Assembly (NCBI RefSeq): GCF_000023205.1
Contig: NC_012803.1
Span: 570,001-602,000 of the forward strand
Length of the DNA stretch: 32,000 nucleotides
DNA from: Micrococcus luteus NCTC 2665
GTDB lineage: Bacteria; Actinomycetota; Actinomycetes; Actinomycetales; Micrococcaceae
Direction of reading: 5' to 3'
Below the pieces are notes generated by a model, which saw only the letters and a list, made by a program, of their open reading frames with translations, had not been told where the DNA came from and did not search any database. The first letter of the stretch is position 1; each line of letters starts with the position of its first letter. A program made the translations under genes and the position numbers. Positions 4,152-31,303 of the stretch are shown here, piece after piece.

Positions 4152-4805
4152 TCAGGGGTGCACCTGCACCGCCCGCCCGGCGTCCCACGCCTGCAGCACG
4201 GCCCGCATCCCCGCCCACGTGAGGCGGGGGCGCGGGCCGTCGTCGTCCTGGTCTTCGTCAGTTCGGGCGTCCCCGTCCGCCGCGGCGACGTCGGCGGCCG
4301 GCAGGGCCTCGGGGCGCACGTGGTCCACGGGGCCGGGCAGGGCGTCGGGCTGGCCGAGGATCTCGGCGGCCACGTCCACCACGGACGGGTCGGCCGCGGT
4401 GCCGCCGGTCGGGAGCTCGAGCCCGCGGGGCAGCGCGACGGCGAACACGGCGGTGGCCGGGTCGGTCCAGCGCTCAGGGCGGTCGGTGAGGACGGCCGCG
4501 GGGGTGGCGCCGTCGTCGGCGGGCTTGGCGCCGGCGCAGAGCACGCCGAGGGCCAGGGCGTGGGAGAGCCAGTGGGCGGGCAGGTCCAGGGCCACCGGGT
4601 CGCCGGGGCCGAGGCCCTCGTCCGCCAGCAGGCCGGCCGTCTTGGCCGCCCAGTTCACGGTGACGCGGCCGGAGAGCTCGATGCGCTGGTCCACGGCGCC
4701 GTGCTCGCCGGGGGCGCCCGGTTCCTGGACGAGCGCGGGGCGCGGTGAGGAGGCCAGGCGCAGCACGAGGGGGCCGGTGGAGTGGGGCGCGGAGAGGGAG
4801 ACCAT
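4152..4805 (-). CDS. Conserved actinobacterial protein resembling the TIGR03089 family (acyl-CoA-synthetase N-terminal-like)
   Basis: MVSLSAPHSTGPLVL...RIELSGRVTVNWAAKTAGLLADEGLGPGDPVALDLPAHWLSHALALGVLCAGA matches my recollection of that family. The start is uncertain; the track ORF extends to 4910. Confidence 0.55.
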   Translation of the reverse strand: MVSLSAPHSTGPLVLRLASSPRPALVQEPGAPGEHGAVDQRIELSGRVTVNWAAKTAGLLADEGLGPGDPVALDLPAHWLSHALALGVLCAGAKPADDGATPAAVLTDRPERWTDPATAVFAVALPRGLELPTGGTAADPSVVDVAAEILGQPDALPGPVDHVRPEALPAADVAAADGDARTDEDQDDDGPRPRLTWAGMRAVLQAWDAGRAVQVHP

Positions 4806-4898
4806 GCACCCAGTCTGGCACCCCGATCCCGCGCCGCGGCGGCCCCCGGGGTCGGCCCCGGGGCCGAGGTCCGGGGCCCCGGCGGGCCCGTGCTCGGC

Positions 4899-4928
4899 TT
4901 GACGGGACACGAATCACACCGATGTAAT
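4899..4928 (+). promoter_or_regulatory. Candidate sigma-70-type promoter for whiB (TTGACG-N18-TGTAAT)
   Basis: TTGACG at 4899-4904 and TGTAAT at 4923-4928, in an unusually AT-containing patch about 120 nt upstream of the whiB ATG. Confidence 0.3.
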
Positions 4929-5046
4929 GAAGGCCGGGTCAGCGGCCTCTCACAGGGGCCGCACCGGCTTGTCCGGGGCCCGCGCGGACCGGCAGGAGAA
5001 CGGGATCCCGCGTCAGCCACGTCGATCCCGGGAAGAGGCGTCACAC

Positions 5047-5577
5047 ATGGAGCAGACCCAGCGAGTCGAGGACGCGCACCGCGCCGAGTCGGCGCAGGCG
5101 GCGGCGCCTCGCCCGCGCGGAGTCCCCAGTGACTGGTTCCTGGACCCGGCCGATCCGCTGGCCGGCGCCGACGCCGCCACCCTGGAGGACCAGGCCACCG
5201 CCCTGCTCTCCGCCCACGACCTCGAGGACGAGGCCGGCACCCCGTCCGCCACCGTCACCGCCCTCTTCCCGGGTGACCCCGGCCGGCCGGTCGAGGCCGC
5301 GCCCGTCGCGGACGACTGGGCCGCGATCCCGGGCCTGGTCACCGAGCCCGTCGAGGGCGAGCTGGCCTGGCAGGTGGACGCGCTGTGCGCCCAGACGGAC
5401 CCCGAGGCGTTCTTCCCGGAGAAGGGCGGCTCCACGCGGGACGCCAAGCGCGTGTGCGAGGCCTGCGTGGTCAAGGACCAGTGCCTCGAGTACGCCATGG
5501 AGAACGACGAGCGCTTCGGCATCTGGGGCGGCCTCTCCGAGCGGGAGCGCCGCCGGCTGCGCCGCGCCCGCGCCTGA
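5047..5577 (+). CDS. whiB: WhiB-family Fe-S redox-sensing transcription factor (WhiB2/WhmD-like, long N-terminal extension)
   Basis: C-terminus VDALCAQTDPEAFFPEKGGSTRDAKRVCEACVVKDQCLEYAMENDERFGIWGGLSERERRRL carries the four Cys of the WhiB cluster and the GIWGG turn. The ATG at 5047 is preceded by GGAAGAGG. Confidence 0.85.
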   Translation: MEQTQRVEDAHRAESAQAAAPRPRGVPSDWFLDPADPLAGADAATLEDQATALLSAHDLEDEAGTPSATVTALFPGDPGRPVEAAPVADDWAAIPGLVTEPVEGELAWQVDALCAQTDPEAFFPEKGGSTRDAKRVCEACVVKDQCLEYAMENDERFGIWGGLSERERRRLRRARA

Positions 5578-5602
5578 CGCCCGGCGGCCACCCGGCCCCG
5601 GC

Positions 5603-6187
5603 TCAGCCGCGGCCCCAGCTGGGGTCGAGCACCTGCGGGTCCACGCCCAGGGCCTCGGCGCAGCGGCTCAGTGCTACCCCGTAGACGGCCCCCTCGAGGT
5701 CGGCCGGGTCGGCCGCGTCCCGCAGCGGCCGCTCGAACAGGGTGATCAGCACCCCGTCCCGGCCCTGCCGCTCGGCCCGCGCGAACAGCGCCTCCTCATC
5801 CCGTTCCCGGCCGGCGTGCAGCTCGCGCAGCCGTTCGTCGAGCCGGTCCGGGATGCGCTCCACCCGCGCGGTCACGTGCCGCAGCCCGGGGGCCTCCAGC
5901 GCCGCCAGCCGGTCGACGGCCTTCTCGACGGCGGTCAGCAGTGCCTCGCCGCGGCCCCGCTCGGAGCGCAGGCCGAAGGGGCGGGGGTGGCGCAGCCCGC
6001 GGCCGCGGCGGTCGCGCGTGCGCCGCGCGCCGTGGCCGCCCGCGCCGGACGCGGCGGCGCCCGGCTGAGGGGCTCCCGTCTCGACCGGGCCGCCGGACGT
6101 GCCCCGCTCCGGGCCCGCGGCGTCGCCCGCCCGGAACGGCAGGGGGTCGAGGGGATCGGAGGCGGCGGACGCGGTCATGCGCGCCAT
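5603..6187 (-). CDS. Conserved hypothetical, probably the metallopeptidase-family protein usually found next to whiB2 and DUF3499 genes
   Basis: RRTRDRRGRGLRHPRPF...LLTAVEKAVDRLAALEAP...GVLITLFERPLRDAADPADLEGAVYGVALSRCAEALGVDPQVL resembles that family as I remember it. It is convergent with whiB and divergent from the DUF3499 gene. No intact HExxH motif was seen. Confidence 0.5.
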   Translation of the reverse strand: MARMTASAASDPLDPLPFRAGDAAGPERGTSGGPVETGAPQPGAAASGAGGHGARRTRDRRGRGLRHPRPFGLRSERGRGEALLTAVEKAVDRLAALEAPGLRHVTARVERIPDRLDERLRELHAGRERDEEALFARAERQGRDGVLITLFERPLRDAADPADLEGAVYGVALSRCAEALGVDPQVLDPSWGRG

Positions 6188-6218
6188 GGTAGGCCACCGC
6201 CCCGGGCCGTCCGCCGAG

Positions 6219-6224
6219 TAGGGT
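6219..6224 (+). promoter_or_regulatory. Putative -10 box TAGGGT, 7 nt before GTG 6232 (leaderless geometry)
   Basis: TAGGGT-ggcgggc-GTG. The same TAGNNT-N7-start geometry recurs at ahcY, tatD and rsmA. Confidence 0.35.
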
Positions 6225-6231
6225 GGCGGGC

Positions 6232-6543
6232 GTGGGACCCATGCGACGCTGCAGCAAGACCGGATGCCAGAGCCCTGCCCTGGCCACGCTGACGTACAAC
6301 TACGCGGACTCGCAGGTGGTCATCGGGCCTCTGTCGCGCCGGGCGGAGCCGCACACGTACGACCTCTGCGGCGAGCACGCTCGGCGCACCACGGCCCCGC
6401 GCGGCTGGGAGGTGCTGCGGCTGGAGCTGCCCGAGCACTATGAGGCCCTCGACGCGGACGGCGGAGTGCGCACGGTCCCCACCCGGCCCATGGCCGCCCC
6501 GCCGGCCCGCCCCGGGCTGCGCGTGGTGCGTGACGGGGACTGA
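6232..6543 (+). CDS. DUF3499-family protein
   Basis: MRRCSKTGCQSPALATLTYNYADSQVVIGPLSRRAEPHTYDLCGEHARRTTAPRGWEVLRLE is the characteristic DUF3499 signature. The start could be GTG 6232 (leaderless geometry), ATG 6241 or GTG 6223. Confidence 0.8.
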   Translation: MGPMRRCSKTGCQSPALATLTYNYADSQVVIGPLSRRAEPHTYDLCGEHARRTTAPRGWEVLRLELPEHYEALDADGGVRTVPTRPMAAPPARPGLRVVRDGD

Positions 6544-6573
6544 CGCGGCACGTGTCGTGCCGTCCGGGGCGTC

Positions 6574-6579
6574 GCTAGG
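6574..6579. repeat. Target-site duplication GCTAGG (left copy) of the IS481-family element
   Basis: An identical hexamer lies at 7697-7702, directly abutting the inverted-repeat ends. It matches the NCTAGN target known for IS481. Confidence 0.8.
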
Positions 6580-7582
6580 TGTAGGAGGTCATGACGTTGT
6601 TGACTCGGGCCGGGGCCAGTGAGGCCGGAGGAGCGTCTCCGCAGGAGGTATGAGGCCGATGGTAGTTGTAGTGGTTCACCCACACTGCCAACGCCTCACG
6701 CCGAGCTGTCTCTGAGGTATACGGGCGGGCGTAGAGGACCTCATCGACCATCAGCCGGTTGTAGCGTTCGACCTTCCCGTTATGGCGGGGCGTGTATGGG
6801 CGGATCCGGTGGTGCCGGCCCCCGAGCGAGACCACCTTGGCGGTGAACTCCGCGGCCCGATAGTTGTTCCCGTTGTCCGTGACCACCCGGTCCACGGTGA
6901 TGCCGTGGGCGGCGAAGAACGCCCTCGCCCGGCAGAAGAACCCGATCGTGGTCACCGCTTTCTCATCCTCCAACGCCTCGGTGTACGCCAGGCGGGTGTA
7001 CCCGTCGATCGCCGAGTGCAGGTAGGTGTACCCGACCCGCCGGCCAGGCCCGCGCTTGGCTGCTCGCGCGTTCTCGGAGTCCCGTCCGTGAGCACGCCAG
7101 CCGCCCCCCTCGGGGATGCGCCCGATCTTCTTCACGTCCAGGTGCACCATGTGCCCCGGGCCGCGGGCGGTGATCTTCTGCGGTCGTTGGCGCAGGTCCT
7201 CACCCGTGGGCGCGAGGTCTGGCAACCGGGAGATGCCCAGCCGGTGCAGCCACCTGCCCACCGTTCGGAGGCACACCCGGTGGCCTTCAGAGACGAGGTG
7301 GTGATGGATCCGGCGGGCCGACCACTTCTCCCTGCGACGCAGGGTCTGGATCTGGGCCACCACCTCGGGGTCGAGCTGGGCAGGTGAACGGTGCGGCCGG
7401 CTGGGCAGGTCCTGAAGGCCGGCCTCGCCTTCGGCACGGTAGCGGGCCACCCAGGTGGCCACCGTGGGCCGGCTCACCCGGAACTCGGCGGCCACGTGCG
7501 CCTGTGGGATCCCGTCGTGCAGGTGGCGGTGGACCATCCTGAGACGGCCGGTGGGAGTCAGGGGTGCATTAGCGTGAGTCAT
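6575..7582 (-). CDS. IS481-family DDE transposase (rve integrase core)
   Basis: [17 protein letters not shown]... has an N-terminal HTH and DDE residues in [17 protein letters not shown] and NGKVERYN. The stop TAG (6575-6577) lies in the flanking CTAG, outside the inverted repeat. Confidence 0.9.
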
Positions 7583-7696
7583 GAGTGGGTCTCTTTTCGG
7601 GCAGGTGGGTGGTGTAGGAACTTCCATCCTGCGGGAGAGGCCCACTCGTCTCATCTCAGCCCGGCCCTCGTGCCAAGAACCTCATGCCCCACAACA
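6580..7696 (-). mobile_element. IS481-family insertion sequence, 1117 bp
   Basis: Imperfect terminal inverted repeats: TGTAGGAGGTCATGACGTTGTTGAC at 6580 versus the reverse complement TGTTGTGGGGCATGAGGTTCTTGGC ending at 7696 (about 20 of the first 28 positions match, TGT...ACA termini). It has a single DDE transposase ORF and a 6-bp GCTAGG direct repeat on both sides. Confidence 0.85.
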
Positions 7697-10615: not shown

Positions 10616-12454
10616 TCAGCGGCGGTAGAGGGCCTCGACGTCCTCGGCGTGGTCCTCGATCACCTGGGCCCGCTTGAGCTTCTGGGACTGGGTGACGTGC
10701 CCGGAGTCCTCGGTGAACGGGTGGTCCAGGATGCGGAAGCGGCGGATGGACTCGGCGCGGGAGACGCCCGCGTTGACCTGGTCCACCGCCTCCTGGATCG
10801 AGGCCAGCACGGTGGGGTCCGTGGCGGCCTCGGCCGGAGTGAGGCTGAGCTCGCGGTCCAGGGCCCACTGGGTGAGGGCCTCGGCGTCCAGGGTGATGAG
10901 GGCGCCCACGAACGGGCGGTTCTCCCCGACCACCACGACGTGCTCGATGAGCCGGTGCTGGCGCAGCGCCTCCTCCATGGGTGTGGGGTACACGTTCTTG
11001 CCGCCGGCGGTGATGATCACGTCCTTCTTGCGGCCGGTGATCCGCAGGAAGCCGTGCTCGTCCAGCGCGCCGATGTCCCCGGTGCGGAAGAAGCCGTCTT
11101 CCATCGCCTCCGCCGACGCCTTCGGCATGCCGTGGTAGCCGTCGAACACCACGGGCCCGCGGATGAGGATCTCGCCGTCCTCGGCGATCTTCACCGTCAC
11201 CCCGGCCACGGGCAGGCCCACGGTGCCCACGCGGTGCGCGCCGGGGATGTTCACGGTGGCCGGCGCGGTGGTCTCCGTGAGGCCGTAGCCCTCCACGATC
11301 GGGATGCCGGCGCCGCGGAAGAAGTGCACCAGCTCCGGGGAGAGGGCGGACGCGCCGGACACGCACGAGATCACCTCGCCGCCGAGGGCCTCCCGGATCT
11401 TGCGATAGACCAGCCGGTCGAACAGCGCACGCCGGGCGCGCAGCAGGGCCGAGGGGCCGGGGCCGTCCCCGAACTCGGCCTCGTCCACGGCCGTGGACCA
11501 CTCGATGGCGGTGCGCTTGGCCGCCGCGTAGATCCGCCCGGTGCCGCCCTTCTGGGCCTTGGCCTCGATGCCGGCCTCGACCTTCTCGAACACGCGCGGC
11601 ACGGCCAGCAGCCACGTGGGGTGGAAGGAGGCGAGGTCGCCGAGCAGCGTGGCCGGGGAACCGGAGTGGGCCACCTGGATGCGGGCGTACAGGCAGATGA
11701 CCTGGACGGCGTGGGCGAGCACGTGGGCCAGCGGGAGGAAGAGCAGGGTGCGCGACGTCGTCGTCTCCGGGGACCACTGGACCACCTCGCGCGCGAAGTG
11801 CAGCACGTTGATGGCCGCGCCCACGAAGTTGCCGTGCGTGATCACGGCGCCCTTCGGGCGGCCGGTGGTGCCGGAGGTGTAGACGATCGAGGCGGGGCTG
11901 GCGAGGGTCGCCAGGGAGCGGGCGTGCTCGACGGCGTCGTCCGACACGAACGCGCCGGCCTCGGCCAGCTCCGCCAGCCCCGCGTCCGTCAGCGGGAACG
12001 TCGCCACGTCCACGCCCGCGTGCCCGGCGGCCTCGGCGACACGCTCGTCGAGCTCCTCGCTGCCGACGGCGACCACCCGCAGCCCCGAGTCCGTGACGAT
12101 GTGCTCCACCTGGTGGGCGGAGGAGGTCTCGTAGATCGGCACGGAGACGGCGCCGGCGAACCACACGGCCTGGTCGAGGACGGCCCACGCGTAGGAGGTG
12201 GGGGAGAACAGGCCCACCCGGTCCCCGGGCTGGACGCCGCGGGCGATGAGGCCGGCCGCCACGGCGCGCACCTGGGTCAGGAACGCGGTGAAGTGGACGT
12301 CCACCCAGCCGCCCGCGCCGTTGCGCTGGGCGTACACGGGGGCGTCCGGCCGATCGGCACAGGAGGCGACGATCAGGTCCGTGATGTTGGAGTCCGCCGG
12401 CGGCATGCCGACGAGCTCGGTGGCGGACTCATGGACGGGGCTCTGGTTCTGCAC
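10616..12454 (-). CDS. fadD: Long-chain fatty-acid--CoA ligase (AMP-binding, FadD15-like)
   Basis: IVYTSGTTGRPKGAVITHGNF (AMP-binding motif), EGYGLTETT, FRTGDIG, ITGRKKDVIITAGGKNVYP. The GTG at 12454 is preceded by TACGCT-N6; the alternative start is ATG 12406. The track ORF 10616..14023 continues upstream as Arg-rich read-through. Confidence 0.85.
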   Translation of the reverse strand: MQNQSPVHESATELVGMPPADSNITDLIVASCADRPDAPVYAQRNGAGGWVDVHFTAFLTQVRAVAAGLIARGVQPGDRVGLFSPTSYAWAVLDQAVWFAGAVSVPIYETSSAHQVEHIVTDSGLRVVAVGSEELDERVAEAAGHAGVDVATFPLTDAGLAELAEAGAFVSDDAVEHARSLATLASPASIVYTSGTTGRPKGAVITHGNFVGAAINVLHFAREVVQWSPETTTSRTLLFLPLAHVLAHAVQVICLYARIQVAHSGSPATLLGDLASFHPTWLLAVPRVFEKVEAGIEAKAQKGGTGRIYAAAKRTAIEWSTAVDEAEFGDGPGPSALLRARRALFDRLVYRKIREALGGEVISCVSGASALSPELVHFFRGAGIPIVEGYGLTETTAPATVNIPGAHRVGTVGLPVAGVTVKIAEDGEILIRGPVVFDGYHGMPKASAEAMEDGFFRTGDIGALDEHGFLRITGRKKDVIITAGGKNVYPTPMEEALRQHRLIEHVVVVGENRPFVGALITLDAEALTQWALDRELSLTPAEAATDPTVLASIQEAVDQVNAGVSRAESIRRFRILDHPFTEDSGHVTQSQKLKRAQVIEDHAEDVEALYRR

Positions 12455-12522
12455 GGTCCGAGCGTATCCATTTCCGGGCGTGCGGCGCGCGGTCGGGCAC
12501 ACCCGCGCCCGCTCCGCGGCCG

Positions 12523-14145
12523 TCAGATCCAGCTGCTGAACCACATCCGCCAGCGCCACTGGTCGTACGGGATGACGTCGCCGATCCACACGGGAAGGAA
12601 GAACAGGGACACGGCGACGGCGATCGTCACGTACGCCAGCACCAGGGCCGAGCCCCAGCGGGGCCCGGGCCGGCGGCCCGGCCGCAGCAGCAGCGAGAGC
12701 GCCAGGGCGATCATCATCACGAGGAAGGGCTCGTAGGCGATCGTGTAGAAGAAGAACATGGTCCGCTCGGGCCACAGGAACCACACCAGCTGCCCGGCCG
12801 CGTAGGCGCCGAGCAGGGCGCCGGCCCGCCAGTCCCGGTGGCGCACCAGCAGCCACACGCACACGAGGACGGCGGCCAGGCCCGTCCACCACACGAACGG
12901 GTTGGCGATGTCCGTGATGGCCGACGAGCACGCGCCCGCGGCGTCCGCCGGGCAGATCCCCTCGCCGGGCTCTGCGCCCTCGTAGTAGTAGCTCACGGGC
13001 CGGCCCATGAACGGCCAGGTCCACGGGTTGGCGGCGTAGTCGTGGGGGCTGGTGAGGCCCTGGTGGAAGGTCGTGGACTCCTCGTGGTAGTGCCACAGGG
13101 AGCGCAGCGGGCCGGGGACCAGCCCGGCGAGCAGGCCCTCCGGCGGGTTGTCCCGGTGCCAGTCCCGGTAGTAGCCGCCCCCCGTGACGAACCAGCCGGT
13201 CCACGAGGCCAGGTAGGCGACCAGGCCGCCGCCCACCACGGCCACGAACGCGTACAGGCCGTCCTTCTCGACGCCGGCCCACGCCCAGTGCCGCACCCCG
13301 GCGGTCCGGCGCGCGGACATGTCCCACAGGACCGTGAGCAGGCCGAAGGCCGCCATGAACGCCAGCCCGGAGAGCTTCACGGCGCAGCCGGCGCCCAGCA
13401 GCACGCCCGCGAGCAGTCGCCACGGGCGCCAGCCGAGCCACGGCCCGCTGGCCAGGGCGTCGCGTCCCCGCCGGGCGACGTCGAGGGCGAGCCGCTCCGC
13501 GAGCAGCCGCCGCCCGTGCACGCGGTCCGCCAGCAGCGCGGCGAAGGCCGCGAGCACGAAGAACGAGAGGAAGATGTCCAGCAGCCCGATGCGGGACATC
13601 ACCAGGTGGTGGCCCTCCACGGCCAGCAGCAGCCCGGCGACCGCGCCCAGGGACACCGAGCGCAGCAGGTGCTGCGTGGCGAGGGCGACCAGCAGGACGG
13701 AGAGCGTGCCGGCCACCGCGGCGCTGAACCGCCAGCCCACCCCGTTGTCCGGGCCGAACGCGAGCATGCCCAGGCCGATCAGCCACTTGCCCAGCGGCGG
13801 GTGCACCACGTAGGCGGCCCCCTCGAGCGGCTCCGCCTCGCCGCGCGCGAACGCGTCGTTGACGTCCTCGTCCCACCGCCGCTCGTAGCCGGACTCCAGG
13901 AGGGAGTAGGCGTCCTTGGGGTAGTAGGTCTCGTCGAAGATCAGCTGATCCGGGTGGGCCAGGTTCGTGAACCGCAGGACGCCGGCGATCGCCGTGACCA
14001 GCAGCGGCAGGATCCAGTGCCACCGCGTCAGGGGTGCCGCACTCACCCCGAGGCGGGCGCGCAGGGCGGCGACGCCGAAGGGGCCGTCGTCGGCCGCGAC
14101 GGCGGCGGGGCGGGGGGCGAGGGCGGTGGCGGGCACGGGCTCCAT
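12523..14145 (-). CDS. pmt: Dolichyl/polyprenyl-phosphate-mannose--protein O-mannosyltransferase
   Basis: MEPVPATAL...LIFDETYYPKDAYSLLESGYE...VVHPPLGKWLIGLGM... has many TM segments and the C-terminus YDQWRWRMWFSSWI. It is divergent from rsmI, as in mycobacteria. The start is moderately uncertain. Confidence 0.85.
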   Translation of the reverse strand: MEPVPATALAPRPAAVAADDGPFGVAALRARLGVSAAPLTRWHWILPLLVTAIAGVLRFTNLAHPDQLIFDETYYPKDAYSLLESGYERRWDEDVNDAFARGEAEPLEGAAYVVHPPLGKWLIGLGMLAFGPDNGVGWRFSAAVAGTLSVLLVALATQHLLRSVSLGAVAGLLLAVEGHHLVMSRIGLLDIFLSFFVLAAFAALLADRVHGRRLLAERLALDVARRGRDALASGPWLGWRPWRLLAGVLLGAGCAVKLSGLAFMAAFGLLTVLWDMSARRTAGVRHWAWAGVEKDGLYAFVAVVGGGLVAYLASWTGWFVTGGGYYRDWHRDNPPEGLLAGLVPGPLRSLWHYHEESTTFHQGLTSPHDYAANPWTWPFMGRPVSYYYEGAEPGEGICPADAAGACSSAITDIANPFVWWTGLAAVLVCVWLLVRHRDWRAGALLGAYAAGQLVWFLWPERTMFFFYTIAYEPFLVMMIALALSLLLRPGRRPGPRWGSALVLAYVTIAVAVSLFFLPVWIGDVIPYDQWRWRMWFSSWI

Positions 14146-22001: not shown

Positions 22002-22274
22002 GTGATCGCGAGTCCCGGTGATCAACTGACCATGCCCCGGAGGGGATCGACCGTCCGCGGTCGTGTCCTGGGTCGGCCCTGGGAGCGCGGCCTCCCGCTG
22101 CTCGTCCTCATCGTGGACCTCGTCGCGGTGCTGCTGGCCACCTTCGTCTCGGCCCAGCTCCGGTTCGGCGCCTCGCGAAGCATCACCCTCCCCGGCGCCG
22201 AACTCATCGACTACGGCACCATCAGCCTCACGCTGAGCGCGGCGTGGGTGCTCGCGCTGGGCATCCAGGGGTCG
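22002..22274 (+). pseudogene. N-terminal fragment of a polyprenyl glycosylphosphotransferase (exopolysaccharide/undecaprenyl-phosphate sugar transferase), truncated by IS256
   Basis: GTG at 22002 follows GGAGGAG. The TM-rich N-terminus reads LPLLVLIVDLVAVLLATFVSAQLRFG...ISLTLSAAWVLALGIQGS. The reading frame then runs 8 codons into the IS and stops at 22298. Confidence 0.8.
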
Positions 22275-23698
22275 GTCAAGTCCCGAGTAGTGGTGTAACG
22301 CTCTGATCCTCCATTGGTGCTGTTAGGCGCTGAGTTCGAGGGTGGTTTCCGGTTCGGCGTTCACCTCGTTCCCGGTGTCGTCCACGGTGGTGAGGCGGCA
22401 GCGGGCCAACACCTCGAGGCCGAGGTAGCGGCGGCCCTCGGCCCACTCATCGGTCTGCTCAGCCAGCACCGCCCCGACCAGGCGCACGATCGCTGCCCGG
22501 TTCGGGAAGATGCCCACGGCGTCGGTGCGACGCCGGATCTCGCGGTTGAGCCGTTCGGCCGGGTTGTTCGACCAGATCTGGGTCCACACGTCCTTGGGGA
22601 ACGTGGTGAACGCCAGGATGTCCGCCCGGGCACCATCGAGGTGTTCGGCCACCGCGGGCAGCTTTTCGCTGACGTAGTCCAGCAGCCGGTCGAACTGGGC
22701 GTCCACGCTGGCGGCGTCGGGCTGGTCATACACCGAGTGCAGCATGGCCTTCACGGCCGGCCACATGGACTTGGGGGTGATGCCCATCAGGTTCGCCGCG
22801 TAGTGGGTCCGGCACCGCTGCCAGGTCGCTCCGGGCAGGTTCGCGGCGATGGCGTCCTTGAGCCCGGTGTGGGCGTCGGAAGTGACCAGGCGGACTCCGG
22901 TCAGGCCCCGGGCCACCAGGTCGGCGAAGAACTCGTTCCACGCCGACCCCGTCTCCGAGGTGGCCACCCGCAGGCCGAGGACCTCGCGGTGGCCGTCACC
23001 ATTGACCCCGGTGGCCAGCAGCACCACGGCGTTGACCACGCGCCCGCCCTCACGCACCTTCATCGTCAACGCGTCCGCGGCAACGAACGTGAACGGTCCC
23101 GCCTCCCCGAGCGGCCGGTGGCGGAAGGCCTCCACCTGCTCATCGAGGTCCGCGGCCATCCGGGACACCTGGGACTTCGACAGGGCATTGATGCCCAAGG
23201 TCTTGACCAGCTTGTCCATCCGCCGGGTAGAGACACCGGCCAGGTAGCAGTCTGCGACCACGGTGATCAGCGCCGATTCGGCCCGCTTGCGCCGCTCGAG
23301 CAGCCATTCCGGGAAGTAGGTGCCCGAGCGCAGCTTCGGGATGGCCACGTCCACGGTGCCGACCCGGGTGTCCAGGTCCCGGTGCCGGTACCCATTGCGC
23401 TGGGCCGTGCGGTCACGGGAGGGTTTGCCCCATTCGGCGCCGACCACCGCATCGGCGTCAGCGCAGAGCAGGGTGTTGATCATCGTCTGCAGCAGGTGGC
23501 GCATCATGTCCGGGGAGGCCTCGGACAGGGCTTCGCCCAGCAGGCCGGCAGGGTCGACAATATGAGGAGCGGTCATCGTGATGACTCCATTCGAGGATTC
23601 TGTGAGAGGTTGACTCGAAGGATCACACGGTGGCCGCGTCCACGTCTGGAACGACGTGCCCGACCACCGGGCGCTACACCACTATGCGGGACTCAACT
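22275..23698 (-). mobile_element. IS256-family insertion sequence, about 1424 bp
   Basis: Terminal inverted repeats: GTCAAGTCCCGAGTAGTGGTGTAACGC at 22275 versus the reverse complement (A)GTTGAGTCCCGCATAGTGGTGTAGCGC ending at 23698. A 9-bp direct repeat CAGGGGTCG lies at 22266-22274 and 23699-23707. It has a single Transposase_mut-type ORF. Confidence 0.85.
22323..23576 (-). CDS. IS256-family (MULE/Transposase_mut) transposase
   Basis: 417 aa: MTAPHIVDPAGLLGEAL...TAQRNGYRHRDLDTRVGTVDVAIPKLRSGTYFP...FVAADALTMKV...VTSDAHTGLKDAI...QRCRTHYAANL...SNNPAERLNREIRRR. Confidence 0.9.
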   Translation of the reverse strand: MTAPHIVDPAGLLGEALSEASPDMMRHLLQTMINTLLCADADAVVGAEWGKPSRDRTAQRNGYRHRDLDTRVGTVDVAIPKLRSGTYFPEWLLERRKRAESALITVVADCYLAGVSTRRMDKLVKTLGINALSKSQVSRMAADLDEQVEAFRHRPLGEAGPFTFVAADALTMKVREGGRVVNAVVLLATGVNGDGHREVLGLRVATSETGSAWNEFFADLVARGLTGVRLVTSDAHTGLKDAIAANLPGATWQRCRTHYAANLMGITPKSMWPAVKAMLHSVYDQPDAASVDAQFDRLLDYVSEKLPAVAEHLDGARADILAFTTFPKDVWTQIWSNNPAERLNREIRRRTDAVGIFPNRAAIVRLVGAVLAEQTDEWAEGRRYLGLEVLARCRLTTVDDTGNEVNAEPETTLELSA

Positions 23699-24928
23699 CA
23701 GGGGTCGCGGGACATCCGGATCCTGGGGGCGGGCAGCGAGGAGTACAAGCGGGTCCTGCAGAGCACTCTCTATCTCTTCGGCACCTTCGCGATCCTCGCC
23801 TATGCGGCAGGTCTCGAAGTGGCGCGCGGCTACGTGGGCCTGGCTCTGCCGCTGGGTGTCCTCCTGCTCCTGCTGGGCCGGTTCCTCGTGCGCAGGTGGG
23901 TGGCGCGGCAGCGACACCGCGGCAGGTTCCGGCGGCGGCTCCTGCTCGTCGGCGGCCCGAAGGCGGTCCGGCACATCTTCCAGACCCTCGACTCCGAGGC
24001 CGGCGCCGGCTACGCCCCCGTGGCGGCGGCTCTCCCCGGATACAAGGCCCGGCGGGAGGACTACCTCCCGATACCGGTCTCCACGGACCTGGACACCGTG
24101 GAGGACCTGGTCGCCCTCGTGGAAGAGCGCGACCTCGAAGCGGTGGTGATCACCTCGGGCCACTCGTTCGTCCCCGGGGACGTCCGCCGGCTGGGCTGGG
24201 AGCTGCAGGAGCGCGGCGTCTCCCTGATCATGGCGCCCGCCCTCGTGGACGTCGCCGGACCCCGTCTCCACACGCAGCCCCTCGCGGGTCTGCCGCTCAT
24301 CCACCTCTCCACCCCGCGCCTCTCCGAGGGCAAGGCATTCGTCAAGCGGGGGTTCGACGTCGTCGCGTCGGGTCTGGGCCTGATCATCATCTCGCCGCTG
24401 CTGATCGCCGTCGCGATCGCGGTCAAGGCCACGGACGGCGGGCCGGTGCTGTTCCGGCAGGAGCGCATCGGTCTCGGCGGCAGGCCGTTCACCATGCTCA
24501 AGTTCCGCTCCATGGTGGTGGACGCCGAGAAGATCCGGCAGCGGCTCGTCTCGGATGGCGGGGATGCGGACGTGCTGTTCAAGATGAAGGACGACCCGCG
24601 CATCACGAAGGTCGGCAGGTTCATCCGCCGCACCAGCATCGACGAGCTGCCCCAGCTCGTGAACGTGCTGCGGGGGGACATGTCCCTCGTGGGCCCGCGG
24701 CCCCACCTGCCGCACGAGGTCGAGGCCTATGACCAGTACGTGCACCGCCGGTTCCTGGTGAAGCCCGGCATCACGGGCCTCTGGCAGGTCTCCGGCCGGT
24801 CCGACCTCCCGTGGGAGGAGGCGGTCCGCCTGGACCTCTACTACGTGGAGAACTGGTCCATCCTGGGCGACCTCGTGATCCTGGGGCGGACCGTCAAGGC
24901 CGTGATCGCCGCCGACGGCGCCTATTGA
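23699..24928 (+). pseudogene. C-terminal fragment (catalytic Bac_transf domain) of the same glycosylphosphotransferase
   Basis: QGSRDIRILGAGSEEYKRV..., then the catalytic domain FVKRGFDVVASGLGLIIISPLLIAVAIAVKATDGGPVLFRQERIGLGGRPFTMLKFRSM...DELPQLVNVLRGDMSLVGPRP...PGITGLWQVSGRSD. Removing the IS and one repeat copy restores one ORF of about 497 codons. Confidence 0.85.
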
Positions 24929-24992: not shown

Positions 24993-25064
24993 TCCGCCCT
25001 GGTGTAATGGCAGCACGCCGGCCTTTGGAGCCGTGCGGTCTAGGTTCGAATCCTAGGGGCGGAA
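24993..25064 (+). tRNA. tRNA-Gln (anticodon TTG)
   Basis: Manual cloverleaf fold: acceptor TCCGCCC/GGGCGGA, D arm GTGT-AATGGCA-GCAC, anticodon arm CCGGC-CTTTGGA-GCCGT, T arm CTAGG-TTCGAAT-CCTAG, discriminator A. No encoded CCA. Confidence 0.85.
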
Positions 25065-25101
25065 CCCCCGTCCTCTGACCCCCACCGGTGCAGGAGCCCC
25101 C

Positions 25102-26595
25102 ATGTCCCAGCCGTCCGCTCGTCCCTCCGCCGTGATCGTCCTGGCCGCGGGCCAGGGCACCCGCATGAAGTCGACGACGCCGAAGATCATGCATGCGATC
25201 GGGGGACGCTCCCTCGTGGGCCACGCGCTCGCGGCGGCGTGGTCGCTTGCGCCGGAGCACCTCGTGGCCGTGGTCCGGCACGAGCGGGCCCGCGTGGCCG
25301 AGCACATCGAGACGGTGGCGGCCCAGCTGGGCATCGACGCGCTGGCGATCGCCGACCAGGACGACGTGCCGGGCACGGGCCGCGCCGTCGAGCTGGGCCT
25401 GGCCGCCCTGCCCGCGGACCTCGAGGGCACCGTCGTGGTGACCTACGGCGACGTCCCGCTGCTGACCCCGGAGACGCTCGCCCGCCTCGTCGCGGACCAC
25501 GAGGCGGACGGCAACGCCGTCACCGTGCTCACCGCCACCCTCGAGGACGCCACGGGCTACGGCCGCATCGTCCGCGACGCCGAGGGCCTCGTGGAGCGGA
25601 TCATGGAGCACAAGGACGCCCTCGCCCACGCCGAGTCCACGGGGGACGACTCCTTCGTGGCGATCCGCGAGGTCAACTCCGGCATCTACGCCTTCGACGC
25701 CGCCCTGCTGCGGCGCACGCTCCCGGCGATCTCCACGGACAACGTGCAGGGCGAGAAGTACCTCACGGACGTGCTGGGCATGGCCCGGGACGAGGGCGGC
25801 CGCGTGGCCTCCGTGGGCACGCAGGACGTGTGGGAGGTCGAGGGCGCCAACGACCGCCGCCAGCTCTCCGACCTGGGCCGTCGGCTGAACGAGCGCGTGC
25901 TGCGCCACTGGATGAAGGAGGGCGTCACCGTGGTGGACCCCTCCTCCACGTGGGTGGACGTCACCGTCACCTTGTCCTCGGACGTCACTCTCAAGCCGGG
26001 CACGCAGCTGCACGGTGCGACGTCGGTGGCCACCGGCGCCGTGGTGGGCCCGGACTCCACCCTCACGGACACGCAGGTGGGGGAGCGCGCCGTGGTCAAG
26101 CGGACCGACGCCACGGAGGCCGTGATCGGCGCGGACGCGAGCATCGGCCCGTTCACCTACCTGCGCCCGGGCACCGTGCTGGGCGAGGAGGGCAGGATCG
26201 GCGCGTTCTACGAGACGAAGAAGGTCACCATCGGCCGCGGCGCCAAGCTCTCCCACCTCGGCTACGCCGGCGACGCCGAGATCGGCGAGTACACGAACAT
26301 CGGCTGCGGCAACATCACCGCCAACTACGACGGCGTCAACAAGCACCGCACGGTGATCGGCGCGCACGTGCGCACCGGCTCCAACACGGTGTTCACGGCC
26401 CCGGTGACCGTGGGCGACGGCGCCTACACCGGCGCGGGCGCCGTGGTCCGCGAGGACGTGCCCGCCGGGGCACTGGCGCTGAACGCCGTGAGCCAGCGCA
26501 CCCTCGAGGGCTGGGTGCCGGCCAAGCGCCCGGGCACCTCCTCGGCCGAGGCCGCGCGGGCCGCCGGCGCGGAGGGCTCCGGCGCTCAGGGCTGA
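25102..26595 (+). CDS. glmU: Bifunctional UDP-N-acetylglucosamine diphosphorylase / glucosamine-1-phosphate N-acetyltransferase
   Basis: VIVLAAGQGTRMKSTTPKIMH, YGDVPLL, NSGIYAF, and a C-terminal left-handed beta-helix hexapeptide region (IGAFYETKK...IGCGNITANYDG...). GCAGGAG lies upstream of the ATG. Confidence 0.92.
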   Translation: MSQPSARPSAVIVLAAGQGTRMKSTTPKIMHAIGGRSLVGHALAAAWSLAPEHLVAVVRHERARVAEHIETVAAQLGIDALAIADQDDVPGTGRAVELGLAALPADLEGTVVVTYGDVPLLTPETLARLVADHEADGNAVTVLTATLEDATGYGRIVRDAEGLVERIMEHKDALAHAESTGDDSFVAIREVNSGIYAFDAALLRRTLPAISTDNVQGEKYLTDVLGMARDEGGRVASVGTQDVWEVEGANDRRQLSDLGRRLNERVLRHWMKEGVTVVDPSSTWVDVTVTLSSDVTLKPGTQLHGATSVATGAVVGPDSTLTDTQVGERAVVKRTDATEAVIGADASIGPFTYLRPGTVLGEEGRIGAFYETKKVTIGRGAKLSHLGYAGDAEIGEYTNIGCGNITANYDGVNKHRTVIGAHVRTGSNTVFTAPVTVGDGAYTGAGAVVREDVPAGALALNAVSQRTLEGWVPAKRPGTSSAEAARAAGAEGSGAQG

Positions 26596-26607
26596 CCCCG
26601 CGCGCCC
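26553..26607. repeat. 55-bp direct repeat, copy 1 (last 14 glmU codons, the stop, and 12 nt beyond)
   Basis: CGCGCGGGCCGCCGGCGCgGAGGGCTCCGGCGCTCAGGGCTGACCCCGCGCGCCC. It matches 28223-28277 at 54 of 55 positions; the single G/C difference at 26571 versus 28241 is synonymous. Confidence 0.9.
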
Positions 26608-26621
26608 GACAAGAGGTCGGC

Positions 26622-26659
26622 GTGTCACAACCGTACCGATTCCGGTACGGTTGTGACAC
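26622..26659. promoter_or_regulatory. Perfect 17-bp-arm inverted repeat upstream of abiEi, a candidate operator and/or glmU terminator
   Basis: GTGTCACAACCGTACCG-attc-CGGTACGGTTGTGACAC. It starts 14 nt after repeat copy 1 and ends 21 nt before the abiEi GTG. Confidence 0.5.
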
Positions 26660-26680
26660 CAGAGATGAGGTGGTGATCCC

Positions 26681-27250
26681 GTGACGTATCGTGACGATCT
26701 GTGGGACGTGGCTGCGGGGAACCACGGGGTCATCACCACTACGGAAGCGGAGGAGGCGGGCGTGCCCGCCGTCGAGGTCCGCAAGCTCGCCCAGCGCGGC
26801 GTTCTGCGGAGGCTGGCCCACGGGGTGTACCTCCATCGCCAGGTTCCCCGCGACCGGTTCACGGACGCGGCGGAGGCCGTGGCCACGGTCGGTGAAGATG
26901 CATTCCTGGACTGGGACGCAGTGCTGTCACTGTACGACCTCGCCCTGGTCGATCCCTCCGTCGTACGGGTGGGCGTGACGAGGCGGTACCGCGGCTCGCC
27001 GCGCGCGCATGTACGAGTGACACGACGCCGTCCCCCGCCGGGCGACGAGGACCTCACCTTTCACGGCGGCGTGCGAGGCCTCACGATCAACCAAGCCCTT
27101 CGTGAGGCACTCGACCGCATCCCTCTCGAGCGCGTCGCCGCTGCGATCGAGGAGGCCCGCGCGCGCGGGCTGCTCACGGTGGGCGAGGCGAGGAGCTTGA
27201 AGAGGGACCTGGAGGCGCGGCAGAACGGTGGACATCGTGGCGGTCGCTGA
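26681..27250 (+). CDS. abiEi: AbiEi-family antitoxin / transcriptional regulator (type IV TA, COG5340-like)
   Basis: N-terminal winged-HTH pattern GVITTTEAEEAGVPAVEVRKLAQRGVLRRLAHGVYLH, then SLYDLALVDPSVVRVGV...LTINQALREAL. The GTG start follows GAGGTGG. It overlaps the next ORF. Confidence 0.75.
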   Translation: MTYRDDLWDVAAGNHGVITTTEAEEAGVPAVEVRKLAQRGVLRRLAHGVYLHRQVPRDRFTDAAEAVATVGEDAFLDWDAVLSLYDLALVDPSVVRVGVTRRYRGSPRAHVRVTRRRPPPGDEDLTFHGGVRGLTINQALREALDRIPLERVAAAIEEARARGLLTVGEARSLKRDLEARQNGGHRGGR

Positions 27251-28265
27251 CGTGGTCGTGGGCCTGGGCGATCTGGGAGCTCGAGGTGCGCCCAGGAGCG
27301 AAGGCCAACTCAACCGTCGACTGGAGGCGATCGCTGACGCGATGGGCGTTCCGGTGGACCGGGCGCGCCGGTTGCTGGGAGCAGTGATCGTGGCGCAGAT
27401 GTTGCCGGAAGGCGTCGTAGTCAAGGGTGCAAATGGCGTTCGACTCCGCCATGGAGCCACCGGGACGCGGGCGACCCGGGATCTCGATCTACTGGCTCGC
27501 GATCCCCAGCAGGCGCTGAAGGACTTGACCGGGTTCGTCGACCGGGGATGGGGGGCCGCGCCCGGGAGCAAGAGAGAACTCAAGGCCGACCCGGCTGCGA
27601 CCCGGGTGGCCTTCTTCGGCACGGTGCATGAGGACGATCCTGCGGAGCCTCTCGGAGTGCCCGATCCCTACGTCCTGTCACGAGCGAAGGTGACCCTGCA
27701 TTTTCTCTCCCCGAGGACAAGTTGGGTGTCGGTCCCGATCGAGATCGGGCGCGACGAATTCGAGGGCAGCACGCTGGCGCAGCCAGTCGAGGTCGTGGCA
27801 CCCCAGGTCGCGGAGGCGGTCACCGCGTTGGGATGTGGAACACCGCGGTCTGTGGCCGTGATGGCTGTCGAGCAGCAGCTCGCACAGAAGATCCATGCCG
27901 TCACGGATCCACATCAGACGCGAGGCCACGATCTCGTGGACATCCAGTTGCTCTGGCATGGGGCGGAGGCCGAGGGTGGTGTCGACATCCCGTTGCTCGC
28001 AGATCTCGTCAGCCGTACTTTCATGTTTCGGTCACCCGGCCGGACTGCGGCAGGACACACACCGCATGAGTGGCCGCCTCCGGTCGCTCACGTCCGGACT
28101 CTCGAGCAGGGGTACCTGGATGCGCTGGAGGAGACACGAGTGGGTGCGGAGGGACAGGCCAGGCTCCTGCAGCCGCGCGTGTCCGACGCGGCGGATTGGC
28201 TGGAGTCGTTGATCACAAGGATCGCGCGGGCCGCCGGCGCCGAGGGCTCCGGCGCTCAGGGCTGA
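27228..28265 (+). CDS. abiEii: AbiEii/AbiGii (DUF1814) nucleotidyltransferase toxin
   Basis: VVVKGANGVRLRHGATGTRATRDLDLLA (G..x..RxTxDLDL NTase motif), VPIEIG, VEQQLAQKIHAVTD (conserved Lys), TRGHDLVDIQLL (RxxDxxD). The start is ambiguous (GTG 27228, 27252 or 27258). The last 14 codons lie in repeat copy 2 and are identical to the glmU C-terminus. Confidence 0.75.
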   Translation: MDIVAVADVVVGLGDLGARGAPRSEGQLNRRLEAIADAMGVPVDRARRLLGAVIVAQMLPEGVVVKGANGVRLRHGATGTRATRDLDLLARDPQQALKDLTGFVDRGWGAAPGSKRELKADPAATRVAFFGTVHEDDPAEPLGVPDPYVLSRAKVTLHFLSPRTSWVSVPIEIGRDEFEGSTLAQPVEVVAPQVAEAVTALGCGTPRSVAVMAVEQQLAQKIHAVTDPHQTRGHDLVDIQLLWHGAEAEGGVDIPLLADLVSRTFMFRSPGRTAAGHTPHEWPPPVAHVRTLEQGYLDALEETRVGAEGQARLLQPRVSDAADWLESLITRIARAAGAEGSGAQG

Positions 28266-28277
28266 CCCCGCGCGCCC
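28223..28277. repeat. 55-bp direct repeat, copy 2
   Basis: See 26553-26607. Confidence 0.9.
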
Positions 28278-28381
28278 TAGGATGGGTGCGAGGACCGGGC
28301 CCCTCAGGCGGCCCGCTGGACGTCGGCCGCGCGCCGCCGCCGGGCATGGAACGTGCAACCACGAAGGATGATGAGGACGTC

Positions 28382-29362
28382 ATGACGGAGCTGAGCCGCA
28401 GCGAGGACAAGCGACTGGTGCTGGCCACGGGCCGCGCCCACCCCGAGCTCGCGCAGGAGATCGCGGAGGAGCTCGGCACCGAGCTGCTGCCCATGAGCGC
28501 CTACGACTTCGCCAACGGCGAGATCTACGTGCGCTCGGGCGAGTCGGTGCGCGGCAAGGACGTGTTCATCATCCAGTCCCACCCCGCGCCGCTGAACAAC
28601 CACCTGATGGAGCAGCTGATCATGGTGGACTCCATGAAGCGCGCCTCCGCCCGCCGCATCACGGTGGTCTCCCCGTTCTACCCGTACGCCCGCCAGGACA
28701 AGAAGGGCCGCGGCCGCGAGCCGATCTCGGCCCGTCTGGTGGCGGACCTGTACAAGACCGCCGGCGCCTCCCGCGTGATGAGCGTGGACCTGCACACCGC
28801 GCAGATCCAGGGCTTCTTCGACGGCCCGGTGGACCACCTCTTCGCCATCCCGCTGCTCGCGGACTACATCCGCACCCGCGTGGAGGGCGAGGAGGTCACC
28901 GTGGTCTCCCCGGACACCGGCCGCGTGCGCGTGGCGGAGCAGTGGGCGGACCGCCTCGGCGGCGTGCCCCTGGGCTTCGTGCACAAGAGCCGCGACCTCA
29001 CGGTCCCGAACAAGGCGGAGTCGAAGACCGTGGTGGGCGACGTCGAGGGCCGCGTGTGCGTGCTGATCGACGACATGATCGACACCGGCGGCACGATCGC
29101 CGGCGCCGTGCGCATCCTGAAGGACGCCGGCGCCAAGGACGTCATCATCGCCGCCACCCACGCGGTGTTCTCCGAGCCCGCCGCCCAGCGCCTGAGCGAC
29201 TGCGGCGCCCGCGAGGTCGTGGTGACCAACACGCTGCCCATCCCCGAGGAGAAGCGGTTCGAGTCCCTCACCGTGCTCTCCATCGCTCCGCTGATCGCCC
29301 GCGCGATCCGCGAGGTGTTCGAGGACGGCTCCGTCACCAGCCTGTTCGACGGCGACGCCTGA
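28382..29362 (+). CDS. prs: Ribose-phosphate diphosphokinase (PRPP synthetase)
   Basis: FANGEIYVR, VVSPFYPYARQDKK, VDLHTAQIQGFF, VLIDDMIDTGGTI (PRPP-binding loop). GAGGA lies 6 nt before the ATG at 28382. Confidence 0.92.
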   Translation: MTELSRSEDKRLVLATGRAHPELAQEIAEELGTELLPMSAYDFANGEIYVRSGESVRGKDVFIIQSHPAPLNNHLMEQLIMVDSMKRASARRITVVSPFYPYARQDKKGRGREPISARLVADLYKTAGASRVMSVDLHTAQIQGFFDGPVDHLFAIPLLADYIRTRVEGEEVTVVSPDTGRVRVAEQWADRLGGVPLGFVHKSRDLTVPNKAESKTVVGDVEGRVCVLIDDMIDTGGTIAGAVRILKDAGAKDVIIAATHAVFSEPAAQRLSDCGAREVVVTNTLPIPEEKRFESLTVLSIAPLIARAIREVFEDGSVTSLFDGDA

Positions 29363-30163: not shown

Positions 30164-31303
30164 TCAGCCGGTCGTGGCCAGTTCCGCGGTGACCAGGGCG
30201 TCCATCGCCTCCCGCACCCGGGCCTCGGCGTCCTCGGGCACGGGCCCTTCGGCGCGGAGACGGCCCACCACGTCGGCGGCCGTCCGCGGCTCGTCCAGCA
30301 GGAGCCAGACGGAGGGGCCCAGACCTTCGAGCACGACCAGGCGGTCCGAGGCGAGCAGGACCAGGCGGCCGTCATCGAGCTGGATTCCGCACTCCGCACC
30401 GTGGCGCCGGACGGTTGCGCCGTCACCGCCCGGTGTCCCGGCGGTGGAGACTGTCCTCGGGCTGGCGGAGAGCTCCGGGTCATTGAGAGGCGTCCATGAC
30501 GGGCTCATCGGTGCGGGCTGCTGCGCGAGCAGCCCGTCTATCACGGGACGCAGGTCAGAGGCCTCCGAGTAGACGAGCCGGAGGGCGCCGCCCAGCCTGT
30601 CGAGCGTCCGGCACAGGGCGACCAGTCCACGCGGAAGATGGGCGACGGAGGACGTCTGGGGCACGAGGAGGGTCAACGCCTCCAGCAGGGGCATCGGCTC
30701 GGCACGCGCCGTCACGCGCTCGCCCGGCTCCCGGACACGCTCCAGCACGCAGATGCGCTGCAGCGTCGCCTCCGGGGCTTGACCGAGCCCTATCTCGTCC
30801 GGACTCACCTGATGCTTCGGACGGCTTCCAGACGGACTGAGCACGGAGAGCGGCTTGGGGTAGGGGGTGACGGCGAGATCCCCGGGGTGGACGATCGCCG
30901 TCTCGTCTGAGAGGTAGCCGTAGTGGGGTCCCAGGGTCCGAGTCGCCGTGGTCTTCCCCGTCCCCGACGCCGCGACCAGGACGACGGCGGCACCGGTCTC
31001 AAGGTCAGCCAGGCAGGCCGCATGGAACATCAGGTGGCTCCCGCGCCCCGCCTCGATGGCGTGGCGCGTGGCCCGGTGGACCAATTCCTCGTGGAACTGG
31101 TCCCACGACAGCGAGGCCAGACTCACACGGTCCACGTCCCCCCGTGAGGCCTCGCACGGTGTCGGGGTGCACCGTGACCACGCGCGGACGATGGCGGCAG
31201 ACTCGACCTCGTCGAGCGACGAGACGAGCAGGGACCCGGCCCCGGTCTCGATCGACCAGGTGGACGTGTCCCGGTGCTGGCAGTCGGTGGGATGCGCGGG
31301 CAT
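30164..31303 (-). CDS. Fusion protein: HPr-kinase-like P-loop domain plus C-terminal PqqD/RRE-like domain
   Basis: MFHAACLADLETGAAVVLVAASGTGKTTATRTLGPHYGYLSDETAIV has the HprK C-domain-like core. The C-terminus IQLDDGRLVLLASDRLVVLEGLGPSVWLLLDEPRTAADVVGRLRAEG...EARVREAMDALVTAELA has a PqqD-like pattern. The ATG at 31303 is preceded by GAGGAG. The track ORF extends to 31531, but that part has poor codon usage. Confidence 0.65.
   Translation of the reverse strand: MPAHPTDCQHRDTSTWSIETGAGSLLVSSLDEVESAAIVRAWSRCTPTPCEASRGDVDRVSLASLSWDQFHEELVHRATRHAIEAGRGSHLMFHAACLADLETGAAVVLVAASGTGKTTATRTLGPHYGYLSDETAIVHPGDLAVTPYPKPLSVLSPSGSRPKHQVSPDEIGLGQAPEATLQRICVLERVREPGERVTARAEPMPLLEALTLLVPQTSSVAHLPRGLVALCRTLDRLGGALRLVYSEASDLRPVIDGLLAQQPAPMSPSWTPLNDPELSASPRTVSTAGTPGGDGATVRRHGAECGIQLDDGRLVLLASDRLVVLEGLGPSVWLLLDEPRTAADVVGRLRAEGPVPEDAEARVREAMDALVTAELATTG

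Follow-up and report, generated by a model that had tools for sequence, protein, structure and literature searches.

An AbiE toxin–antitoxin islet between glmU and prs of Micrococcus luteus, bracketed by a 55-bp duplication of the glmU 3′ end

In Micrococcus luteus NCTC 2665, an islet of two genes of the AbiE toxin–antitoxin (TA) family lies between glmU and prs and is bracketed by two 55-bp direct repeats of the glmU 3′ end. We analyzed this islet within a stretch of 32,000 nucleotides ("the window"; RefSeq assembly GCF_000023205.1, contig NC_012803.1, positions 570,001 to 602,000 of the forward strand), and coordinates below are counted from the first letter of that stretch. The features of the locus are as follows.

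24993-25066, + strand: tRNA-Gln (UUG), upstream of glmU, a conserved context outside the insert (ARAGORN)
25102-26595, + strand: glmU (497 aa), with Pfam NTP_transferase and Hexapep domains and orthologues in L001-L010
26553-26607, + strand: left repeat copy, comprising glmU codons 485-497 (the last 40 coding nt), the TGA stop and 12 nt beyond
26608-26621, + strand: 14-nt spacer from the left repeat to the palindrome, the sole insert DNA on the left side that looks non-functional
26622-26659, no strand: perfect 17+17 bp palindrome with a 4-nt center, GTGTCACAACCGTACCG/CGGTACGGTTGTGACAC (inverted-repeat search)
26681-27250, + strand: abiEi, antitoxin/transcriptional regulator (189 aa), GTG start (PF13338, PADLOC AbiEi)
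27228-28265, + strand: abiEii, nucleotidyltransferase toxin (345 aa) (PF08843, PADLOC AbiEii)
28223-28277, + strand: right repeat copy, in the same frame as in glmU
28278-28285, + strand: TAGGATGG, with a -10-like TAGGAT, directly abutting the right repeat (junction alignments)
28382-29362, + strand: prs, ribose-phosphate pyrophosphokinase (326 aa), with Pfam Pribosyltran_N and Pribosyl_synth domains

The two repeat copies agreed at 54 of 55 positions, and their starts were 1670 bp apart, as the original prediction, made from the DNA letters, had stated, and a search of the window at ≤3 mismatches returned only these two matches (0 in 100 shuffles). The sole mismatch, G at 26570 versus C at 28240, leaves the encoded residue unchanged in both frames. 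The repeat derives from the host: the first ~20 nt align with glmU tails of other species, and the last base abuts TAGGATGG, a motif kept upstream of prs in seven of eight other Micrococcus species (the exception being L008, the most divergent) and probably, from its sequence, the -10 element of prs. The spacer around this motif was not conserved in the L001-L007 junctions, and the insertion point coincided with the upstream edge of the motif. Between the repeats, the 1615 bp of unique insert held both abiE genes and nothing else coding; the claim that it contains no integrase, transposase or terminal inverted repeats was confirmed. The 55-bp repeat did not behave as a hairpin or terminator, as it folded no better than shuffled sequence (z = -0.36), and a high folding z-score nearby stemmed from the palindrome. 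Across 26400-28450, a sigma-70 promoter scan gave no match, and the single terminator-like site, within abiEii, was at chance level.

Searches with hidden Markov models supported the proposed AbiEi and AbiEii assignments of the two open reading frames (ORFs). The product of the upstream gene matched PF13338 (AbiEi_4; E 2.6e-13, 50.3 bits with a cut-off of 25) and the PADLOC AbiEi model (3.6e-48), and the product of the downstream gene matched PF08843 (AbiEii; E 4.7e-11, 43.5 bits with a cut-off of 22.5) and the PADLOC AbiEii model (8.2e-61). The antitoxin gene comes first and overlaps the toxin gene by 23 nt, the AbiEi start (MTYR...) is kept in relatives, and the residues D85, D87, K221, D235, and D238, which are invariant in a family alignment of AbiEii, are all present. 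The excess of A/T-ending codons described for the insert was also evident: G+C content at third codon positions (GC3) was 0.81 for abiEi and 0.75 for abiEii, compared to 0.98 for glmU, 0.99 for prs, and 0.97 for lepB. Judged by composition, the AbiE pair is foreign. By family membership, it should be a type IV toxin–antitoxin or abortive-infection module, in which the winged-helix protein AbiEi would repress the operon at the palindrome and neutralize AbiEii, and AbiEii, a DUF1814 nucleotidyltransferase, would arrest growth when released, for example on phage infection.

Close relatives were rare. Of the 5.8 billion entries covered by a word-indexed search, only eight proteins reached E ≤ 1e-10; apart from the copies in M. 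luteus, the best was 54% identical and was located at another locus. Residue 68 of AbiEii (27429-27431) is alanine in the window's clade and glycine, the second G of a KGG motif, in all eight aligned relatives; residue 7 (27246-27248) is also alanine in the window's clade, and M. luteus L041 and L068-L070 have Asp7 and Gly68. Most cassette differences from the window change an amino acid (5 of 6 in L069 and 6 of 8 in L068). Related AbiE pairs adjoin a tyrosine integrase in L052 (869-3152), a protein with an AbiJ N-terminal domain in L056 (2664-3185), and a protein with a 5-hmdU DNA kinase helical domain in L055 (2317-3381). These are mobile-element or defense-island contexts, unlike the bare islet of M. 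luteus.

At its right edge, the insert ends inside the toxin gene. Alignment of AbiEii with all retrievable relatives showed that family conservation stops at ...WLESLITRI, precisely where the right repeat begins, and that the tails of the relatives beyond this point are unrelated and consist of 3-15 residues. The right repeat encodes AbiEii residues 333-345 and the stop, holding the last 43 nt of the gene, and the resulting C-terminus, ARAAGAEGSGAQG-stop, is the same 13 residues and stop as in GlmU, read in the same frame. Because toxin-family homology ends at the repeat edge, AbiEii borrows its last 13 codons and stop from the duplicated glmU tail. The earlier description of two overlapping ORFs between the repeats thus held as to their number, but abiEii is not wholly inside, as its 3′ end and stop lie in the right repeat.

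At the left edge, DNA similarity to the nearest relative cassette (L048) begins at the palindrome, at position 26623, 15 nt from the repeat. With a few changes, the same palindrome, TGTCACAACCGTACCG-N4-CGGTACGGTTGTGACA, is found 20-30 nt upstream of abiEi in cassettes of other genomes (L048, L052, L055, and L056); five cassettes share it in all. Autoregulation by AbiEi is known for AbiE operons, and the palindrome is probably the AbiEi operator, overlapping the abiE promoter. The L048 cassette resides at a different locus, near tRNA-Ala/Ile and gyrA, and showed no flanking repeats beyond chance-level short matches. On sequence grounds, the M. luteus insert is essentially a bare operon, apparently clipped in the variable tail of the toxin and completed by duplicated host sequence.

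Comparison with other genomes revealed both occupied and empty sites. A second NCTC 2665 sequence (LS483396.1) was identical to the window over the islet region. Every contig encoding the exact AbiEii, GlmU, or Prs of the window either carried the islet with both repeats and the same G/C mismatch or ended at the repeat, and no empty site was found among these contigs. Other M. luteus lineages were reached via variants of a hypervariable ScmC/PqqD-like gene downstream of lepB. Islet carriers comprised L031-L041 and L068-L071, with the same flanking core genes in all. Empty M. luteus sites were found in L058-L061 (including the complete genome CP186573.1) and in L062, where the glmU-prs gap is 111 bp and the glmU tail is another allele ("X"), present as a single copy and 72-75% identical over the repeat region. 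In eight other Micrococcus species and in Nocardioides and Marmoricola, prs follows glmU directly, 130-195 bp further on, and AbiE genes are absent, in agreement with the proposal that adjacency of glmU and prs is ancestral. The contrary scenario that the original prediction had named, in which relatives would carry the two ORFs as an ancestral arrangement lacking flanking repeats, did not materialize: the other species and some M. luteus strains were empty, and carriers had the repeats.

A pattern search of metagenome contigs for the predicted empty junction, consisting of glmU, a single repeat, and the sequence from 28278 onward, recovered this very structure in a single contig, L051. Here, the identical 55-mer occurs once, with the left-copy variant G, and is followed directly by TAGGATGGGTGCGAGG..., the 28278-onward sequence including TAGGATGG. 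The L051 target matched the upstream copy at 55/55 positions and the downstream copy at 54/55. Five contigs from Logan (k=31), L042, L047, L066, L072, and L073, terminate within the 37 nt of the 55-mer that are repeated exactly, and we read these ends as assembly breaks at the repeat and not as structural evidence. Short-read assemblies therefore break this locus systematically, and calls of whether the islet is present can be wrong when made from them.

The islet is embedded in a haplotype block that is shared across otherwise diverged lineages.

26460-28371, no strand: "W" haplotype block, covering both repeats and the cassette together with the glmU tail and most of the spacer upstream of prs (difference positions, mosaic tracks)

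Over this block, from ~26460 to 28371, M. luteus lineages that differ by 5-6% in their flanks were 99.5-99.7% identical. In L068-L071, for example, glmU and prs were 94-95% identical to those of the window, and yet only 6-9 differences were found across 26473-28464, an interval that starts 80 nt before the left repeat, in glmU, spans both repeats with the cassette and the 104-nt spacer, and reaches 83 nt into prs. The latter 83 nt are invariant in all compared strains and are therefore uninformative for the right end of the block. Divergence was 0.4% in the cassette compared to 5-9% in the flanks, and the flanks of L068-L071 grouped with those of empty-site strains and not with the window.

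To place breakpoints, we used the sites at which the window and the empty-site L058 differ and scored which of the two each occupied strain matched. L069 and L070 switched from L058-like to window-like between 26454 and 26460 and switched back between 28371 and 28465. In L068, the corresponding switches fell between 26382 and 26406 and between 28357 and 28371. The shared block thus reaches past the repeats, 90-170 nt into glmU and 80-190 nt on the prs side, with strain-specific breakpoints. Differing breakpoints outside the repeats are the signature of homologous recombination that imported a ~2-kb tract into another backbone, and the islet therefore spreads by homologous recombination in its flanks, with no recombinase needed. 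Such spread fits the extensive homologous recombination that PMC7890812 reports for M. luteus and the proposal of PMC13617665 for TA islets. The original prediction had cast the end of glmU as an attachment site and the islet as an unusual mode of mobilization; this view is not supported, as a near-identical block overruns both repeats with breakpoints that vary between strains, and neither a circular junction nor a second site was found.

The sequences beside the insert are themselves polymorphic. Compared to L058 and L062, the glmU tail (26473-26607) and the prs upstream spacer (28286-28381) each exist in M. luteus as one of two deeply diverged alleles, which differ by 15-26% (5-9% in adjacent coding DNA), and the islet is linked to one of these alleles. 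In L066 and L072, a repeat of the window type occurs together with the other spacer allele, a combination suggestive of further recombinants.

How did the islet originate? We favor, with moderate confidence, a one-off illegitimate insertion that duplicated a long stretch of its target, followed by spread through homologous recombination. A single entry of the AbiE module into the 111-bp spacer of glmU and prs, in some ancestor belonging to the M. luteus complex, would have duplicated 55 bp of target across the glmU stop codon; on the left, glmU would thus retain a complete 3′ end, and on the right, prs would retain the upstream sequence native to it. The fragment that came in would have been cut inside the variable C-terminal tail of abiEii, which is why the toxin would end in the 13 codons and stop of the duplicated glmU tail, and it may have been joined by template switching or illegitimate joining. 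Since then, the islet would have behaved as a presence/absence allele carried on ~2-kb tracts, with crossing-over in glmU and within or close to the region upstream of prs. The original prediction had proposed entry by a single Campbell-type or att-like crossover that duplicated the end of glmU. The empty sites bear out insertion and duplication; the event may have been of the Campbell or attachment (att) type or, as we favor, an illegitimate insertion.

Several points weigh against the scenario that we favor, in which the step that made the 55-bp duplication is inferred. L051, the only empty site with the identical 55-mer, is a contig of 4x coverage that starts 17 nt before the repeat, and on these grounds it might be an assembly artefact (a mis-join) or a secondary deletion between the repeats. 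As AbiEii of the window has alanine at the otherwise invariant Gly68, this copy of the toxin may be attenuated. Moreover, 55 bp is a typical length of attL/attR identity for elements with a tyrosine integrase that leave the 3′ end of the target gene restored, and the AbiE relative in L052, which is 48% identical, lies directly upstream of a tyrosine integrase (PF00589).

The latter observations also speak for a different history, which we regard as possible though distinctly less probable, namely that the islet is the relic of an integrative element, similar to a cis-mobilizable element (CIME). A tyrosine-integrase element with the glmU 3′ end in its attP would have integrated by a Campbell mechanism to create 55-bp attL and attR sites, internal deletions would then have spared only the addictive AbiE module, and one of these deletions would have fused abiEii to attR; such a relic might still be mobilizable in trans. 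The length and position of the repeat, which runs from the coding tail to 12 nt past the stop and restores the gene, match those established for integrases that target gene 3′ ends, empty sites carry a single copy, and TA modules are expected to outlast the erosion of islands (PMC13617665). However, no tyrosine or serine recombinase was detected in the insert, among the ten long ORFs scanned within 1-17.7 kb of the window, or among the genes called in matching contigs (~19.2-32 kb), where the only mobility genes were IS481- and IS256-family transposases. The DNA left over beyond the operon amounts to 14 nt at the left end and none at the right, which would require two deletions ending at or inside the att copies, and no other cargo or element occupied the site in the eight species and several M. 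luteus lineages. The transfer tracts between lineages are not bounded by the repeats. The suggestion that the cassette might also be found elsewhere, on plasmids or phages, found no support: blastn and tblastn searches of 72,556 plasmids and 50,697 phage records gave no match to the cassette, and the viral contigs of IMG/VR contained neither the 36-nt exact part of the repeat nor any relative detectable with the AbiEii family alignment.

Other histories appear far less credible. It is quite unlikely that the repeats are functional, that a recombinase encoded elsewhere moves the AbiE pair, as a minimal non-autonomous integrative cassette, into and out of the glmU 3′ end, that attP overlaps the 3′ end of the toxin gene, and that L051 is an excision product. 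Very unlikely, too, is the original prediction's own proposal of an active, non-autonomous att cassette, a 1.67-kb unit moving through its 55-bp repeats with a recombinase supplied in trans. The preservation of near-perfect repeats in all strains, the minimal size of the cassette, and the structure of L051, which with its left-copy variant G is that expected from precise excision, would suit such a cassette, but the pattern of a circular or tandem junction (abiEii end, repeat, left end of the insert) was absent from all 73 loci retrieved, only one genomic site is known, with no other DNA-level copies, the shared block extends beyond the repeats to strain-specific breakpoints, and the repeat has no more secondary structure than its shuffled counterparts. 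An ancestral glmU-abiE-prs arrangement that was repeatedly lost elsewhere is extremely improbable, and we rejected it. Although contigs with a GlmU, Prs, or AbiEii exactly as in the window all contain the islet or break off at the repeat, eight other Micrococcus species, Nocardioidaceae, and some M. luteus strains lack the islet, its GC3 is foreign, the target duplication marks an insertion, and divergence is 0.4% in the cassette versus 5-6% in the flanks. Insertion mediated by an insertion sequence (IS) was rejected as well: the window's IS481- and IS256-family elements lie at a distance of 3-20 kb, and the target duplications that these families produce measure only a few bp.

The wider neighborhood contains additional variable features. 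An IS256-family transposase (PF00872; 22323-23576, - strand) lies inside a Bac_transf sugar-transferase gene (22002-22298 and 23684-24928) upstream of tRNA-Gln. This gene encodes 497 aa in other strains and is called as a 414-aa protein and a 98-aa fragment in NCTC 2665, and the insertion is strain-specific. An IS481-family transposase with rve, LZ_Tnp_IS481, and HTH_32 domains (6575-7654, - strand) is unrelated to the islet. The ScmC/PqqD-like gene used to reach other lineages (30164-31303, - strand), which lies just downstream of lepB, has dozens of allele clusters with 55-63% protein identity between alleles, compared to ~95% for its neighbors, and looks like a locus that diversifies or is often replaced. 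In many M. luteus strains (L058-L061 and L066-L073; locus positions 1-6900), a variable cluster of glycosyltransferase, NeuB, and CMP-sugar synthetase genes resides beside this gene, whereas the lineage of the window has rplY (L25) and pth there instead (L031, locus positions 12355-13561, past the end of the window). This alternation between sugar cluster and rplY/pth is a second and larger presence/absence polymorphism, ~2 kb from the AbiE islet.

The islet resembles several known systems. Like the AbiE type IV TA/abortive-infection systems of Lactococcus and Streptococcus agalactiae and the related MenAT systems of Mycobacterium tuberculosis, it is a bicistronic operon of overlapping genes, encodes an antitoxin with an AbiEi_4 winged-helix N-terminus and a DUF1814/AbiEii toxin with conserved acidic and lysine residues, and has an inverted-repeat operator, here putative, just upstream. 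Unlike those systems, the M. luteus pair belongs to a small divergent clade, its putative operator is one 38-bp perfect palindrome, and its toxin has a graft of the host GlmU tail as its C-terminus and a G68A substitution in the KGG motif. As in CIMEs and integrative elements that target gene 3′ ends (with 40-60 bp of att identity), direct repeats of a gene 3′ end bracket foreign DNA and the target is restored; actinomycete integrative elements of the pSAM2 type are examples of such targeting. The M. luteus islet differs from these elements in having no integrase or arm-type DNA, in transfer tracts that are not bounded by the repeats, and in the lack of a circular junction among the 73 loci.

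An AbiEi/AbiEii operon has been described in M. luteus before. The excerpted text of PMC7890812 reports this operon (OG_1985/OG_1986, Fig. 6c) as accessory and enriched in non-host-associated strains, and the legend to that figure has a tRNA gene drawn beside it; the operon is very probably at the same locus as the islet described here. That text is concerned with presence/absence and habitat association, and the repeats, the toxin-GlmU fusion, and the recombination tracts are not mentioned in it.

The closest parallel for the insertion is the long target duplication seen with restriction-modification gene complexes (Nobusato et al., 2000, Gene 259:99; Furuta, Abe and Kobayashi, 2010, PMC2853133). 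In those cases, restriction-modification genes unaccompanied by mobility genes are flanked by duplications of 46-423 bp of unique target, and a start or stop codon often falls within the duplication, so that the adjacent gene remains whole (PMC2853133). Correspondingly, the M. luteus insert is shorter than 20 kb and consists of a complete addiction-type pair with no mobility genes or other mobile element, its deviant composition sets it apart, and its duplication is longer than 30 bp, is unique to this target within the 32-kb window, aligns once to the empty-site contig L051, has a single counterpart at the empty sites of related genomes, and spans a stop codon while leaving the neighboring gene intact. 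The differences are that the cargo is a TA/abortive-infection module instead of a restriction-modification system, that the host is an actinobacterium, and that one of the cargo genes continues in frame into the duplicated target.

For the subsequent spread, the parallel is with TA-only islets, for which movement through homologous recombination in the core genes on either side has been proposed (PMC13617665, Mol Biol Evol 2026). In both cases, a TA pair is the sole content between two core genes, mobile-element genes are absent, and recombination tracts in the flanking core genes carry the islet between lineages. The M. luteus islet likewise has the same flanks in different strains, varies in presence and absence within the species, and has a phylogeny that disagrees with that of its flanks. 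The islets of PMC13617665 are type II systems in Photorhabdus; the main text of that paper uses "duplication" once, for a gene copy, and does not use "direct repeats."

Viewed against these precedents, the locus reveals no new mechanism of mobility. It presents a defense or addiction module that settled between two essential genes only 111 bp apart with damage to neither, and with its toxin gene completed by host sequence. It extends the pattern of long target duplication from restriction-modification systems to an AbiE TA module in an actinobacterium, and its two sets of breakpoints, together with divergence of 0.4% versus 5-9%, provide sequence-level evidence for the proposal that TA-only islets move within a species by recombination in their flanks. 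The islet is thus a new example of two known phenomena, insertion with long target duplication and exchange of a TA islet by homologous recombination, to which the fusion of a toxin to a host tail is added.

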